Virus record (IMG/VR): IMGVR_UViG_2778261231_000014
Coordinates: 1-13,592 of that record
Strand: one strand, 5' to 3'
DNA length: 13,592 nt
DNA from: a virus
Taxonomy: Duplodnaviria; Heunggongvirae; Uroviricota; Caudoviricetes
The stretch's first letter is position 1. Each line of letters opens with the position of its first letter. The position numbers and the translations under genes were made by a program. Below are positions 4,458-13,592 of the stretch, in pieces. Under the pieces are notes generated by a model, which saw only the letters and a list, made by a program, of their open reading frames with translations, had not been told where the DNA came from and made no database searches.

Positions 4458-5219
4458 ATGACACAGTTTCAACTTGCATTAATCGCCAGAGAAGTTGATG
4501 GAGAAGTCATCCATCTTCGCACCAAAGACGGTTACATCAATGCCACCGCAATGTGCAAGTCTGCTGGGAAGCTACTTGCTGACTATACACGACTAAAAAC
4601 AACGCAAGATTTTTTTGATGAATTATCCCGCGATATGGGGATTCCCATATCGGAATTAATTCAATCATTTAAAGGCGGAAGAGCAGAGAATCAAGGGACT
4701 TGGGTTCATCCAGACATCGCAATTAACTTAGCTCAGTGGCTATCTCCAAAATTTGCAGTGCAAGTATCGAGATGGGTGCGTGAGTGGATGTCAGGCGAAA
4801 GAGCGCCTGCCGAACTCCCTATCCACCTTAAGCGGTATATGACAAACCGAGGCAGGGTTCCTCATACGCACTTTTCTATGCTTAATGAACTGACGTTTAA
4901 CCTGGTTGCGCCACTTGAGCAGGCAGGATATACGCTGCCAGAAAAAATGGTCCCTGATATTTCAGAAGGTAGGGTTTTCTCGCAATGGCTTCGTGAAAAC
5001 CGGGGTGTTGAGCCGAAGACGTTCCCAACATATAACCATGAGTACCCAGATGGCCGGACATTCCCGGTACGTCTATACCCAAACGAATATCTTGCAGATT
5101 TCAAACAACACTTCAACGAAGTGTGGCTGCCTCAGTACGCTCCTAAATATTTTGCAGAACGAGACCAAAGGGCATTGACGTTGATTGAGAAAATCATGTT
5201 GCCTGACCTTGATTCCTAA
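4458..5219 (+). CDS. KilA-N domain protein (253 aa) with an unassigned C-terminal domain
   Basis: N-terminal approximately 100 aa (INATAMCKSAGKLLADYTRLKTTQDFF...VHPDIAINLAQWLSPKFAVQVSRWV) fit the KilA-N/APSES-like fold. AGGA RBS; lower GC than the flanks. Confidence 0.65.
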   Translation: MTQFQLALIAREVDGEVIHLRTKDGYINATAMCKSAGKLLADYTRLKTTQDFFDELSRDMGIPISELIQSFKGGRAENQGTWVHPDIAINLAQWLSPKFAVQVSRWVREWMSGERAPAELPIHLKRYMTNRGRVPHTHFSMLNELTFNLVAPLEQAGYTLPEKMVPDISEGRVFSQWLRENRGVEPKTFPTYNHEYPDGRTFPVRLYPNEYLADFKQHFNEVWLPQYAPKYFAERDQRALTLIEKIMLPDLDS

Positions 5220-7228: not shown

Positions 7229-7368
7229 GCGAAAGCCCACCGAAGTGGGCCCGCCATGTCCGGCCTCACCGACCAAAGTTACACCGGAAACAACATTAAA
7301 ACCAAAGTTAACCCAATGGGCGCTATCAATGGTCCGGGGATTCTAACACCCAAAAATGAGGATCTCAC

Positions 7369-10300
7369 ATGGAATTCTTTAATGTGGTTAAAGCCACTCA
7401 GAAATCCGGAAAGCAAGATGCAGTGGTCTGGTTCACTGCTAAAACCGAGGCTCGCGCCAATCTGATGCTGGATGTTGCGCTGGAAGATGCAGGTATCGAA
7501 ACAGGTCGGGGTAAGGACTACGCCAAACCGATTCGCACTGATTTCCCAGTTGTCGACGGCCTGCCGAAAGAAGGTGAAGTTGATTTTACCTGGTGTGATC
7601 GCTACGAGCTTCAGGACGATGGGCGCACCTGGCTGCCAAAAGCCGCTGGTGTGTCTACTGGTTCCGTTGACGCCCCCTACACACCTACTCCGACCGTAAT
7701 CGTTGAAGATGCGACTGCGTCCGAAATTGTCCCGGTTGAAAACCGTACTCCAGCGGTCCGCTTTGCCGTCCATCTGATGAACGATAAATACCAAACCCAC
7801 GTCACTAAAGAGCAGCAGTTGGCTGCCAGCGAAATGTCACTGGATGAAGGCAATACATATCTCCATAGCCTGCTTGTGGCAAGGAACGATGTGCCCGCGA
7901 CCGCCAAACTCAGCCTGAATGCTGAGTGGAAAATGATTCGGGCGGTTAAGGACATTTTCACACCCGACGAAGAGCACGAACCAAGATTGATCGCTGCATT
8001 CATGTCTGACTGGGTGAACACCGATGCCGGTGACCGCAATCAACTGGTAGAAGACTGGCGCAGTGGTAAGTTGCAGTTGCTCAAAACTGAAACCAGCAAC
8101 GCTGCTGACGTTACAACGGGTCAAGATCTCACTGTTGAGGACGGTATCCAGACCGACGAGAACGGCCGGGCAGAAGGTGGCGTCGTTGATGGTGAAGTCG
8201 ATACCGAAGAGCAATCCCAGCAGACACAGCAACCGAACCTGATCGTTGTTGCCACCCTGCCATTCCGCCAGCGCGTACTGGCTCAGTTCATCGGTGATGG
8301 TGAATATCTCTATCACATCGACGCAGGGCAGAAAAATGAGATTGTCCGCCTTGAGATGGACACCGATGACGCGTACGTCCAGAACCTGCTGCTGGCAGCT
8401 GAGAATGTGGAAGCATTCAAAAAAGCCATTGAGCACGATATTCATAAAGTCGTGAATGCCGTTAAGAAAGTCTTCCCTGTCGATGGAAAAATCCCTGAAC
8501 TCGCAACCTTAATCCAGTTTTTGAAATTGTGGTTCGCTACAGATCACATCGACCGCGGTATCCTCGTTCGCGAATGGGCCGCCGGTAATCGCATCAGTAG
8601 TGTGCAGCGTACTGATTCCGGCACTAATGCCGACGGCGGTTACGTCACTGACCGTGGACCTGACGCACACCACACACTGGACACTCTCGATTTAGAGATT
8701 GCGTGTGCCCTTCTGCCTATGGACTTCAACCACTTCGAGATCCCGGGCAGCATTCTTCGTCGCGCTAAAGAAATCGTGACCAAAAAAGAAGAACCATGGA
8801 AATCATGGAGCAACATCCTGCGCAATCAGCCAGGCGTTCTGGGTGTTAACCGCACGGCTATTTTTAACCTGGTACGTATCGCACCGGAAAATATTCATTT
8901 AACTCCTGTCGCTCACCTGGAATTTGTTAACCAGACCATGACAGCCGCGTTCAATTCCGCGGTCGAGTTATTGCCGTTGCATGAGGCTGAACCCGCAGCA
9001 CAGGAAATTCCCCAACCTGAAGGTAAGGAGTCTCCGCGCAAATCCTTCTGCACTCACGAAGAGAACCTGCAACGCGTGCGTGAAGAAGGAGCACGCCGCC
9101 GCGCAGAGGAAGCGGCAGCACAACCGCAGAAAGTCGAACAAGAACTGGTTAAAAATGTCGGCAACGGAATATTCGACGTTACGGCTTTGCTGCAGAACTC
9201 AGCAACTCATGGCACGAAAAAGGCTACGGAGACCACCAGCAATGTGCAGGTTCAAGAAACTGTCAGTGATGAAAAACAAGCTGGTGATGAAGTACAGCCA
9301 GGCGAAAGCAGTCTGGAGTCTGGTGAAGAGTCAGATACCAGCCAGAAGGACGATGTAAACCAGAATACGGATTCTGTCGCCAAAAATAGCGATTCTGTAA
9401 GCCAAACCGAACCAGTTGCAGCACAAACCGAGCCAGAAGCGCAATCTGACGAACCGGCTGTTGTTTATCCCGCTTATTTCGAGCCAGGCCGCTATGAAGG
9501 GCTGCCAAACGAGGTTTACCACGCCGCCAACGGCATCAGCTCAACCCAGGTGAAAGATGCGCGCGTTTCGCTGATGTACTTCAATGCGCGCCACGTAGAG
9601 AAAACCATCGTCAAAGAGCGCTCAGCGGTGCTGGACATGGGCAACTTGGTGCATGCGCTGGCGTTGCAGCCTGAACTACTGGACGCAGAATTCAGCGTTG
9701 AACCGGTGATCCCTGAAGGCGCATTCACAACGGCCGCGACCCTGCGCGCCTTTATCGATGAGCACAATGCCAGCCTGCCGGCGCTGCTGTCTGCCGACGA
9801 CATCAAGGTGTTACTGGAAGAGTACAACGCCACCCTGCCGCCGCAGGTTCCGCTTGGCGCTAACCTGGAAGAAACGGCACAGAACTATATGGCGCTGCCA
9901 GCTGACTTCCAGCGTATTGATGGTGACCAGAAGCAGACGGCGACGGCAATGAAGGCATGCATTAAAGAGTACAACGCCACCCTGCCGCCGCCGGTTAAAA
10001 CCAGCGGCAGCCGTGACGCGCTGCTGGAGCAGTTGGCAATCATCAACCCTGACCTTGTGGCTCAGGAAGCACAGAAACCGGCACCACTGAAAGTGTCCGG
10101 TACCAAAGCAGACATGATCCAGGCCGTGAAGGCAGTCAAACCAGATGCCGTATTTGCCGACGAACTGCTGGATGCCTGGCGCGATAACCCGGAAGGAAAA
10201 GTGCTGGTCACCCGCCAGCAGCTGAGCACCGCGCTGAATATTCAAAAAGCGCTTCTGGCACACCCGACCGCCGGCATGCTGCTGACCCACCCTAGCCGAG

Positions 10301-10758
10301 CCGTTGAGGTGAGCTACTTTGGTTTTGACGAGGAGACGGGCTTGGAAGTTCGTGTGCGCCCTGACCTTGAGATCGACCTGGATGGCGTGCGTATAGGTGC
10401 AGACCTGAAAACCATCAGCATGTGGAATGTTAAGCAGGAAAGCCTGCGCGCCAGGCTACACCGGGAAATTATTGAACGTGATTATCACCTGAGCGCGGCT
10501 ATGTACTGCGAAACCGCAGCGCTGGATCAGTTCTTCTGGATTTTCGTCAACAAAGACGAGAACTACCACTGGATCGCCATCATCGAGGCATCCGCTGAAC
10601 TACTGGAGCTGGGTATGCTCGAGTACCGCAAAGCGATGCGCAATATCGCAACCGGATTCGACACAGGTGAATGGCCAGCGCCAATCACTGCTGACTACAC
10701 CGACGAACTGAACGACTTCGACCTGCGCCGCCTTGAAGCGCTGCGTACTCAGGCATAA
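7369..10758 (+). CDS. recE: RecE-like exonuclease VIII (1129 aa): long N-terminal region, acidic linker, C-terminal PD-(D/E)XK nuclease domain
   Basis: Single long ORF with GAGGA RBS. C-terminal RVRPDLEIDLDGVRIGADLKT fits a PD...(D/E)xK signature; N-terminal DFPVVDGLPKEGEVDFTW resembles what I recall of RecE. Directly followed by an annealing-protein gene. Confidence 0.7.
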   Translation: MEFFNVVKATQKSGKQDAVVWFTAKTEARANLMLDVALEDAGIETGRGKDYAKPIRTDFPVVDGLPKEGEVDFTWCDRYELQDDGRTWLPKAAGVSTGSVDAPYTPTPTVIVEDATASEIVPVENRTPAVRFAVHLMNDKYQTHVTKEQQLAASEMSLDEGNTYLHSLLVARNDVPATAKLSLNAEWKMIRAVKDIFTPDEEHEPRLIAAFMSDWVNTDAGDRNQLVEDWRSGKLQLLKTETSNAADVTTGQDLTVEDGIQTDENGRAEGGVVDGEVDTEEQSQQTQQPNLIVVATLPFRQRVLAQFIGDGEYLYHIDAGQKNEIVRLEMDTDDAYVQNLLLAAENVEAFKKAIEHDIHKVVNAVKKVFPVDGKIPELATLIQFLKLWFATDHIDRGILVREWAAGNRISSVQRTDSGTNADGGYVTDRGPDAHHTLDTLDLEIACALLPMDFNHFEIPGSILRRAKEIVTKKEEPWKSWSNILRNQPGVLGVNRTAIFNLVRIAPENIHLTPVAHLEFVNQTMTAAFNSAVELLPLHEAEPAAQEIPQPEGKESPRKSFCTHEENLQRVREEGARRRAEEAAAQPQKVEQELVKNVGNGIFDVTALLQNSATHGTKKATETTSNVQVQETVSDEKQAGDEVQPGESSLESGEESDTSQKDDVNQNTDSVAKNSDSVSQTEPVAAQTEPEAQSDEPAVVYPAYFEPGRYEGLPNEVYHAANGISSTQVKDARVSLMYFNARHVEKTIVKERSAVLDMGNLVHALALQPELLDAEFSVEPVIPEGAFTTAATLRAFIDEHNASLPALLSADDIKVLLEEYNATLPPQVPLGANLEETAQNYMALPADFQRIDGDQKQTATAMKACIKEYNATLPPPVKTSGSRDALLEQLAIINPDLVAQEAQKPAPLKVSGTKADMIQAVKAVKPDAVFADELLDAWRDNPEGKVLVTRQQLSTALNIQKALLAHPTAGMLLTHPSRAVEVSYFGFDEETGLEVRVRPDLEIDLDGVRIGADLKTISMWNVKQESLRARLHREIIERDYHLSAAMYCETAALDQFFWIFVNKDENYHWIAIIEASAELLELGMLEYRKAMRNIATGFDTGEWPAPITADYTDELNDFDLRRLEALRTQA

Positions 10759-10763
10759 GGGGA

Positions 10764-11882
10764 ATGATGATGGAAAACACGAATATCGTAACCGCTGAAC
10801 AGCAGACTCCAAACACGATCTCAGCCAGCAATGCCATTTTCAACGTGCAGGCTTTAACCCAGCTTCAGTCTGTCGCCGGGTTGATGGCACAGGCAGCCGT
10901 AACGGTGCCTGAGCACCTCCGCGGCAATCCGGCAGACTGCATGGCCATCATCATGCAGGCGATGCAGTGGGGTATGAACCCTTACGCCGTGGCGCAAAAG
11001 ACGCACCTGGTTAACGGTGTCCTGGGATACGAAGCGCAACTGGTTAATGCGGTGATCTCCAGCTCAAACGCCATCGTTGGCCGCTTTCACTATGAGTACG
11101 AGGGCGACTGGTCGAAATGTGCCAGCAGCCGCGAGATAACCGTTAAAAAGCCTGCGAAAGGTGGCGGGACGTACGACAAGAAAGAAATGGTACGCGGTTG
11201 GGAAAGTGCTGATGAACAAGGACTGTCGGTACGGGTAGGTGCCGTTATTCGCGGTGAAAGTGATATCACCTGGGGAGAGCCTGTTTTCCTCTCCAGCGTA
11301 ATCACACGTAATTCTCCACTTTGGGTATCAAACCCGAAACAGCAGATCGCTTATCTGGCACTCAAATACTGGGCGCGCCTGTATTGCCCTGCAGTTGTTC
11401 TTGGTGTGTACACCCCTGATGAGATTGAACAGCGCACAGAAAAAGAGATCAACCCAACGCCGCAACGCGTTAGCCTGGCTGATATCTCAGGTGACACCGT
11501 CACAACCACGCAAAGCGCACAGGAATCGTCGGTAAATGTCGACTCTCTTGCCGATGATTTCCGCGAACGCATCGAATCTGCTCAGGACGTGGATAGCGCC
11601 AAATCGCTGCGTGCCGACATTGAAACGGCGAAAGCTACGCTGGGATCCGCACTATTCACCGAGCTGAAAAACAAAGCCGTAAAGCGTTATTACCTAGTGG
11701 ATGCACGCAACAAGGTTGAGGAGGCTATTAAATCCCTGCCCCAGCCCGACGAGCCGCATGCAGCCGAACGGTTCGCTGAAGCCGAGCGCATGCTTGCATC
11801 TTCAAAGCGTCACTTAGGCGATGAACTGCACGATCAATTCAGCATCACCCTGGCGGATATGAAACCGGAATACGTGGCCTGA
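10764..11882 (+). CDS. Single-strand annealing protein, Bet/RecT (Red-beta) superfamily
   Basis: ADCMAIIMQAMQWGMNPYAVAQKTHLV and SPLWVSNPKQQIAYLALKYWARLYCPAVVLGVYTPDE align by eye with lambda Bet. The true start may be the third ATG at 10770, which has better spacing from AAGGGG. Confidence 0.65.
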   Translation: MMMENTNIVTAEQQTPNTISASNAIFNVQALTQLQSVAGLMAQAAVTVPEHLRGNPADCMAIIMQAMQWGMNPYAVAQKTHLVNGVLGYEAQLVNAVISSSNAIVGRFHYEYEGDWSKCASSREITVKKPAKGGGTYDKKEMVRGWESADEQGLSVRVGAVIRGESDITWGEPVFLSSVITRNSPLWVSNPKQQIAYLALKYWARLYCPAVVLGVYTPDEIEQRTEKEINPTPQRVSLADISGDTVTTTQSAQESSVNVDSLADDFRERIESAQDVDSAKSLRADIETAKATLGSALFTELKNKAVKRYYLVDARNKVEEAIKSLPQPDEPHAAERFAEAERMLASSKRHLGDELHDQFSITLADMKPEYVA

Positions 11883-11920
11883 CGAGACCGGGAGGGGTAA
11901 CCCTCCCTCAAGGAGATTAT

Positions 11921-12163
11921 ATGCGACTGATCAATCGAGGAAGTAAGCAATCACCTTTAGCTCGCCAAGCATGCGACATCGCGCTGGCAGCTCACTTGCA
12001 AACATATGGCGACTATGGGCGAAGCAAGATGAAAGAGACTTATACGGTGAAGGTTGAAGGCATGAAAGTCTGGGTGGAGGTGGTGAACCGAAAGGCGAGC
12101 TACGTGGCCACAGCGATGACCGGCATGCGCCGTCTCCGCTCCCTGCCCGGGCAGGTTGGTTGA
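11921..12163 (+). CDS. Hypothetical protein (80 aa)
   Basis: AAGGAG RBS 6 nt upstream of ATG 11921; sits where Rac/lambda carry a restriction-alleviation gene, but no sequence support for that function. Confidence 0.45.
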   Translation: MRLINRGSKQSPLARQACDIALAAHLQTYGDYGRSKMKETYTVKVEGMKVWVEVVNRKASYVATAMTGMRRLRSLPGQVG

Positions 12164-12204
12164 AAAAGATTTTGAATGGCCCGAACGGGCAACTGGAGAG
12201 AGCT

Positions 12205-12402
12205 ATGGATGATATTTTGGTAACGTCAGACCTGACCAGTCGCTACAAAATTTCACGCAAAACCCTTTGGTCATGGCAAAGTGCAGACACAATGCCTCGG
12301 GGCTTCGTATGCCCGTTCCCACCCCCTGACTGGCCCGGCAACCCTAACCGCTGGCGCTCTGAGTCAATCAAAGAGTGGGAGGATAAAAAGAAGATAAATT
12401 AA
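12205..12402 (+). CDS. AlpA/Xis-like small DNA-binding protein (excisionase or integrase regulator family)
   Basis: [34 protein letters not shown]...[12 protein letters not shown] fits the AlpA/phage-excisionase HTH pattern. ATG 12205 with GGAGAG RBS; the track ORF starts at an upstream TTG at 12160. Confidence 0.55.
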
Positions 12403-13592
12403 CTGAAGGGCTCTCCGATGATCTCTTCAAGATGGCTCTGCCAAACGCGGAGCCAGTGTTTCTGATCATCGATATAGTCATGAAGGTTGTAATGCGCCAT
12501 AACCCCCACCATCTGATGCCCGAGCAGCTTTTCAATTACGTGCGGCGGGCAACCTAACTCAGAGAGATTTGTGGCTATCGTCCGCCTCATATCATGAAGC
12601 GACCACTCTGCCATACCTGTTCCATTCCAAATAGAACGGGCGTAATTGGATGCCACAGGTGAATGAACGGGCGAATCTTTGATCCCGCCATCAATTTTAC
12701 GTTGTGAAGTCACCAGGTGATTGGTGTTTATTTTCTTGAGGTGATTTCTGACCAGGTTAACGGCGGCGTCTGAGAGTCCCCTTCTAATATGTACCCGAGT
12801 TTTATAACTGCCCGCAGGCACGACCCACTCATTATCATCCAATCGAAACCATGATCTCTCACTAAGTCGAATCTCAGCCGTACGGCATCCGGTAAGCATA
12901 ATAAATTTCACCAGGAAAACGGACTCTATCGACATATGGCTTTTCAACCACTGATAGATTTTGCGCAGATCGTCATCGTCCATCCTGCGAGTTCTCTTTT
13001 TAGGCTTTTGCCCGACATCAGATGGCAGTAATCCCTCGAGTGGGTTTGAGGCGATCACACTTCTGTTAACGCAGAACCTAAACGCCCGTTTGCACAGCGA
13101 AAGCATGTAATGAGCCATCACCCTGCTTTCTATAGAATCGAAGACGTTGATCCAGTGCATTTTCGCTGTGTTATCGACTTTGACATTCTTCATCGGTTCG
13201 GCGATATGTTTCTCAAACACCTGGCGATAGTAATCGACTTTAACTAGCCCGTTAGCGATACAGTGCCTTTCAATCCAGTAATTGAACGCTTCGGCAACGG
13301 ACATCGCTTCCTGTCGGGTCTGCTTATCCAGCTTCACCTGCTCTCGCGGATCCAGTCCCTCAGTTAACCAGTTTCTGAATTGTTGGCGACGCTCTCTTGC
13401 CTGGGTGATACTCATTGCAGGATAATCACCAACATTGAGTTTTACCGCTTTACCGGCCCAGCGATACCGATAGAAAAATGATATTTTTCCGGCCTGGCTG
13501 ATTCTGGCGTTGAGCCCGTGCGAATCAGAAATAATCTCGATATCATCTCTTTTCTTGCCGAGCGCCTTCCTGAGCTTTGTGTCGGTGATCAT
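12399..13592 (-). CDS. int: Tyrosine site-specific recombinase (phage integrase, P4-like family)
   Basis: 397-aa ORF with catalytic-region motifs LTGCRTAEI (Arg), HDMRRT (His-x-x-Arg) and LLGHQ...AHYN (His/Tyr); N-terminal arm-binding-like domain. The ATG coincides with the window end. Confidence 0.9.

Follow-up and report, generated by a model that had tools for sequence, protein, structure and literature searches.

Gene content of the window and the xis–int junction

The stretch of DNA analysed, referred to as the window, was 13,592 nt long and came from an IMG/VR record (IMGVR_UViG_2778261231_000014) of a virus classified in Caudoviricetes. Its minus strand carries replication genes, cII and cro; these are followed on the plus strand by cI, kil, recE, recT, the gene for a DUF4060 protein and xis, after which int alone is turned round. 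In its entirety, the window represents the left arm of a lambdoid prophage of the phi80/HK225 type. As in lambda, xis closes the leftward early operon, whereas int is inverted. The DUF4060 gene (11921–12163, + strand; PF13269, E = 4.7e-34) was found between recT and xis, directly upstream of the latter, and is annotated in the same way in HK225 and phi80. Profiles of the Shiga toxin B subunit matched its product faintly and below threshold (E = 0.008–0.03). A match to the isrB family of Hfq-binding sRNAs (Rfam RF01386; 38.2 bits relative to the gathering score of 35, E = 5.8e-4) was detected at 7230–7327 (− strand), on the strand opposite to the recE-like gene (7369–10758) and a short distance upstream of its start.

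The xis gene (12205–12402, + strand) encodes a 65-aa excisionase (recombination directionality factor). It opens with the ATG at 12205, closes with the TAA at 12400–12402 and is preceded by the Shine–Dalgarno sequence GGAGAG (12195–12200, + strand), which was read directly and matches the ribosome-binding site annotated in GenBank entry X04051. The spacing between GGAGAG and the ATG is 4 nt, or 6 nt if the core GGAG alone (12195–12198) is counted. The int gene (12399–13592, − strand) encodes a 397-aa tyrosine integrase of the phi80 type, with the ATG at 13592–13590 and a stop codon that is the complement of the TTA at 12399–12401. The two genes are convergent and their stop codons have TTAA in common (12399–12402, a feature assigned to no strand), exactly as the original prediction had claimed; the same 4-nt tail-to-tail overlap is annotated in phi80 and HK225.

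The large gene had been called an integrase, and Pfam domains confirmed a tyrosine integrase. Two matches scored above the cut-off, one to the N-terminal arm-type DNA-binding domain (PF13356, Arm-DNA-bind_3, E = 1.4e-18, aa 2–87, codons at 13332–13589, − strand) and one to the catalytic domain (PF00589, Phage_integrase, E = 7.8e-17, aa 203–371, codons at 12480–12986, − strand), a combination that points to the P4-class architecture and not to that of lambda. Candidate catalytic residues, located only by string search and by eye, were R237 (in GCR), H333-x-x-R336 (H333DMR336) and Y368 (in AHY). The annotated length of Int differs among records (397, 402 or 416 aa), and in relatives the protein always begins with M(I/L)(T/S)DTKL. 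The 402-aa form of the phi80 genome record, which uses an upstream ATG, was rejected, as this ATG is part of the third copy of a conserved DNA repeat, TGTGTAC, and some relatives have it out of frame or lack it. Because the upstream in-frame ATG is not conserved as a start, the int ORF is judged to be complete in the window, which ends exactly at the int start codon. Many IMG/VR prophage contigs (loci L011–L073) were also observed to end exactly at the int start codon, like the window end at 13592 (locus length of 4388, equal to the xis match plus 1193); these prophage predictions are cut at a gene boundary, without the att arm of about 200 bp.

A megablast search with the region 11800–13592 returned HK225 and mEp237 (99.9% identity), phi80 (99.4%) and X04051, a 1986 GenBank entry entitled 'Lambdoid bacteriophage phi 80 int-xis region'. 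The entry annotates a xis polypeptide (aa 1–65) and int with coordinates overlapping by 4 nt, as do the complete phi80 and HK225 genomes, and X04051 and the phi80 genome record JX871397 also mark the attP core, a leftward terminator and a putative promoter, pI. Xis of 65 aa and Int of 397 aa with identical protein sequences are encoded by phi80 (X04051, Leong et al. 1986 J Mol Biol 189:603; JX871397), HK225, mEp237 and mEpX1, which resemble the window at the DNA level (99.4–99.9%) and in the 4-nt overlap, the hairpin behind xis and the position of attP. Over all 397 residues, Int of the window is identical to that of phi80 and HK225, and within the xis–int coordinates the window showed no difference from these phages. 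The early genes upstream do differ, as the window carries recE/recT like HK225, whereas exo/rec and a dam pseudogene are found in phi80. Both genes, their convergent overlap and the position of att have thus been publicly documented since 1986 and recur in the annotation of several phage genomes, so that the novelty implied for the layout was not borne out. The same 1.5 kb was present at an identity of at least 99% in 173 of 5,426 complete E. coli genomes, or in 174 if one match of 95–99% is counted.

The small gene as an excisionase

The original prediction had described the small gene as an AlpA/Xis-like excisionase. The second part of this description held, since the protein is 100% identical to phi80 Xis (X04051, JX871397), which X04051 annotates as the xis polypeptide and which serves for excision in the CRIM system. 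In CRIM helper plasmids, phi80 Int by itself is used for integration and Int together with Xis for excision. The protein also matched PHROG 1553, 'excisionase', over residues 1–64 (E = 7e-34). Position ties it to its family as well: xis abuts the cognate int, the attP core lies 184–200 nt past int, and the pairing is retained in relatives. The 80-codon ORF from 12160 given in the ORF list, which initiates with TTG, was discarded as unsupported; the start at 12205 was favoured because the relatives begin with MDD(I/L)L. The TGA stop codon of the DUF4060 gene overlaps the TTG that opens this longer form.

The AlpA part of the description was retained only as a remote relationship. Neither Pfam AlpA (PF05930) nor HTH_17 (PF12728) was matched, at E of up to 1 for the 80-aa ORF form and of up to 0.01 for the 65-aa form, and no profile match was obtained to the lambda Xis family (Pfam Exc). 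Among NCBIfam models, a sub-threshold match to Gifsy-1 Xis was the sole result (18.8 bits relative to a cut-off of 60). The family is small, with 28 representatives at E ≤ 1e-3 among 1.84 billion. In an alignment of the window Xis with 22 remote relatives (A2), 9 of the 23 members matched HTH_17 and 3 matched Phage_AlpA. The first PDB match of the family profile was the GIsul2 excisionase 8c3t, an AlpA-family protein (E = 0.039), and a comparison of Xis with an AlpA-family protein in hhalign gave E = 8.9e-5, in register across the whole domain. Xis agrees with the strand-helix-turn-helix-wing-helix fold of AlpA/MerR-like excisionases. The small gene product is therefore best regarded as a remote relative of AlpA-type winged-helix directionality factors that functions like them but for which formal Pfam membership failed, as it stayed below every AlpA, HTH_17 and lambda Xis model of Pfam. 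A profile search had been proposed as one means of rejecting the gene; when run, it reached no Pfam family and, read literally, would have led to the wrong rejection of a true excisionase.

That same result, together with the fact that most of the E. coli genomes listed with xis have no RefSeq/PGAP annotation for it, would fit a chance ORF or a protein other than an excisionase, with the overlap as an annotation artefact. Such a reading has a negligible probability. The ORF is identical to the phi80 xis polypeptide, has a good Shine–Dalgarno sequence and was found to be under purifying selection (dN/dS of about 0.06–0.13 relative to four relatives from Kluyvera and metagenomes). The PHROG match, the AlpA-type excisionase fold with the hhalign result, and the helper plasmids, in which Int with Xis excises and Int alone integrates, speak against it as well, and it is effectively refuted.

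Conservation of the layout and signals around the junction

Related loci, 86 in total, were gathered from genomes and viral contigs with the closer Xis alignment (A1). In all those long enough to judge, xis and int were convergent and overlapping. Escherichia, Kluyvera and Buttiauxella had an overlap of 4 nt, the Citrobacter group one of 8 nt. Apparent overlaps of 39–56 nt in truncated IMG/VR contigs ending at the xis stop codon were spurious and were discarded. Among distant Xis relatives accompanied by a P4-class integrase, the overlap was 4 nt (Cedecea and a 50%-identical metagenomic protein), 23 nt or 37 nt, or the genes abutted exactly. The tail-to-tail pairing persisted down to about 32% Xis identity, across Escherichia, Kluyvera, Citrobacter, Buttiauxella, Cedecea and metagenomes; one relative with 33% identity was not located beside an integrase. 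Since the length of the overlap is variable and the pairing persistent, the pairing is taken as ancestral to the Xis family and the 4-nt overlap as no conserved element of it.

The layout is real but ordinary. The convergence is more than chance because xis is under purifying selection, the proteins are identical to those of phi80 and the arrangement recurs in relatives. In bacteria, convergent genes overlap most commonly by four bases, through complementary stop codons (TTA/TAA or CTA/TAG). As the length of the overlap varies (0, 4, 8, 23 or 37 nt) while the tail-to-tail layout persists, the TTAA at the junction is best read as compact packing of two convergent genes and, in itself, as no regulatory device. 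That it is functional on its own, for example as a fixed bidirectional stop or termination signal, is highly improbable. The recurrence of exactly 4 nt in most of the close and several of the distant relatives could be put forward for such a role; however, the overlap is 8, 23, 37 or 0 nt in others, complementary-stop overlaps of four bases are the commonest kind, and the consensus scan revealed no terminator-like sites spanning the xis/int junction. A long stem on the int-sense strand in xis (about 12318–12385; −56.7 kcal/mol for the 161-nt fold, z = −1.8) was also considered. Its shape was not conserved, which likewise counts against a signal at the junction, and it was set aside as a product of chance or of coding.

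A terminator-like hairpin with an interrupted T tract was identified 31 nt past the xis stop codon (12433–12465, + strand), within the int codons for WLRVWQSH. The hairpin itself (12433–12455) has a 9-bp G+C-rich stem with six G-C pairs and is followed by GTGTTTCTGA. Its fold had an energy of −16.1 kcal/mol (z = −2.3), and the phi80 genome record labels it 'putative leftward transcription terminator'. The stem was kept in relatives with one G-C to G-U change, and in the most distant locus the sequence was different and a small hairpin was still formed. This conservation may reflect the conserved Int codons and is weak evidence. Terminator-like sites were not enriched in the region, two being found relative to 1.7 expected in shuffled sequence. 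The hairpin is thus a candidate end of unmodified, non-antiterminated leftward transcripts, which would probably stop inside the 3' end of int. The second site was located inside int at 12711–12736 (+ strand, xis sense), with CACCAGGTGATTGGTG followed by TTTATTTTCT; it could act as a back-up stop for leftward read-through or, given the two sites relative to 1.7 expected, have arisen by chance. No minus-strand terminator-like site that could serve int was detected inside xis in the consensus scan.

The attachment site had been expected just past the window end, possibly with a tRNA gene near it. Extending the sequence placed the attP core annotated in phi80 (ACAATTTAAGAAAGTGT) 184–200 nt past the int ATG, that is, beyond the window end, and the prophage junction was seen in an E. 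coli chromosome, where the prophage copy was identical up to the attP core and then gave way to host DNA in the direction of kch. Contrary to expectation, the flank examined at this prophage border contained kch and no tRNA.

Between the attP core and the int ATG, phi80 carries an annotated 'possible' int promoter, pI, with weak hexamers, and the consensus scan detected no consensus sigma-70 promoter in this interval. Three direct repeats of TGTGTAC(A/C)C were found between the annotated −10 region and the int ATG, 7–46 nt past the window end, or 5–47 nt if the stretch is taken as 4656–4698 of locus L001. The TGTGTAC repeats were conserved from Escherichia to Cedecea and in metagenomic relatives (also loci L004, L005–L010 and L093–L095) while their flanks diverged; counted over the whole locus, the motif was not significant. 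Based on their position and conservation, these repeats are likely to be arm-type sites of Int, overlapping the int promoter or leader.

Control of the module and comparison with other systems

The site-specific recombination module of this phi80-type lambdoid prophage is best explained, with a probability of about 80%, by uncoupled control, in which Int would be made from its own att-proximal promoter and Xis would be gated by the repressor-controlled early operon. Xis, a small winged-helix directionality factor of AlpA/MerR-like fold, would be produced only after induction because its gene is the terminal one in that operon. The gene for the P4-class integrase is inverted relative to lambda and cannot be read from the leftward operon; because of this orientation, it would have to be transcribed from the P' arm of about 185 bp between the attP core and its start codon. 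This arm, with the putative int promoter, stays joined to int in phage and prophage alike. Int would then be present at a low level independently of the repressor, possibly autoregulated through the TGTGTAC repeats, and the supply of Xis would be the sole gate on excision. Leftward transcripts that are not antiterminated would probably end at the hairpin in the 3' end of int.

Two experimentally studied systems have this geometry. In phi24B (Fogg et al. 2011, PMC3064807), a promoter of its own serves the inverted int. Lysogens express this int without control by CI, and lysogeny stays stable since xis is still subject to CI and the lambda-like induction pathway. Like the window, phi24B is lambdoid, with int inverted relative to lambda and with xis on the pL-side strand, next to the 3' end of int. 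It differs in its unrelated integrase lineage and att site, and in its Xis, which matches Pfam AlpA directly (E = 5e-6, PMC3064807), whereas phi80 Xis does not. In the IntS/TorI system of KplE1 (CPS-53), both IntS and the directionality factor repress the promoter of intS, which overlaps att (Panis et al. 2010, PMC2951348). Compared with this arrangement, the phi80-type arm has three conserved TGTGTAC repeats between the annotated −10 region and the ATG and no consensus promoter; autoregulation was demonstrated for KplE1 int (PMC2951348), whereas for the phi80-type int we infer it. The KplE1/HK620/Sf6 type also differs in location, as KplE1 inserts beside a tRNA gene (argW) and the phi80 type in the yciI–kch region, with no tRNA in the flank examined.

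The original prediction held that the overlap implies transcriptional interference between the two genes. According to this idea, convergent transcription would itself be the control: leftward transcripts made after induction would run through xis and antisense into int, above all if antiterminated by N past the hairpin, collide with or occlude its transcription and form duplexes. This is possible but rather unlikely, and so is the proposed outcome, a fall of Int synthesis as Xis rises or the reverse in a lysogen. The geometry permits it, with zero intergenic space and an interrupted T tract in the sole terminator-like element after xis, and read-through is plausible, as phi80-type phages carry an N gene (listed in X13065). 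The tail-to-tail arrangement is, moreover, very persistent in the family. Against it stand the unconserved length of the overlap (0–37 nt), the hairpin 31 nt past xis and the uncoupling in phi24B and KplE1, work that accounts for the behaviour without interference. A literature search on phi80 gave no paper describing such an effect, and a query on xis/int interference gave the phage 186 Apl work alone. The overlap by itself does not carry the implication drawn from it; the idea is nevertheless compatible with uncoupled control, as an addition to it and not a replacement. A more specific and still less probable version is that N-antiterminated leftward transcripts pass the hairpin at 12433–12455 and continue antisense through all of int into attP, shutting off Int synthesis by collision or pairing. 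If true, such read-through would be the functional counterpart, reached via gene inversion, of sib retroregulation in lambda and would explain the persistence of the tail-to-tail packing in the family.

The module resembles lambda in several respects: xis lies at the far end of the pL operon and borders int and attP, a small winged-helix Xis is combined with an arm-binding tyrosine integrase, and a terminator-like element follows the module. The similarity to AlpA/IntA of CP4-57 lies in the fold superfamily of the small protein and in the P4-class integrase partner. In CP4-57, AlpA is encoded upstream of intA and activates it. The small gene of the window is instead downstream of and convergent with int, and its product stays below the Pfam AlpA threshold. 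Its remote profile similarity was to an AlpA-family (PF05930) protein from the locus of a relative and not to CP4-57 AlpA itself.

The module is the textbook-era phi80 int–xis pair on which the widely used CRIM tools for phi80-based integration and excision rest, and it has little weight as a discovery. In practical terms, the label 'left arm of a phi80/HK225-type prophage, ending at int' can be given to the window. Automated RefSeq annotation usually misses xis, and Pfam profiles fail to recognise this excisionase of AlpA-like fold. In E. coli chromosomes with the module, the integrase and the DUF4060 gene alone are usually listed and xis is omitted (12205–12402 in the window; 2606–2803 in locus L004). 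Two 'Xis' relatives in the databases (P0011 and P0012) are 100–104 aa long, as the called gene runs into the antisense of the integrase 3' end; these calls are an annotation artefact of the tail-to-tail packing.
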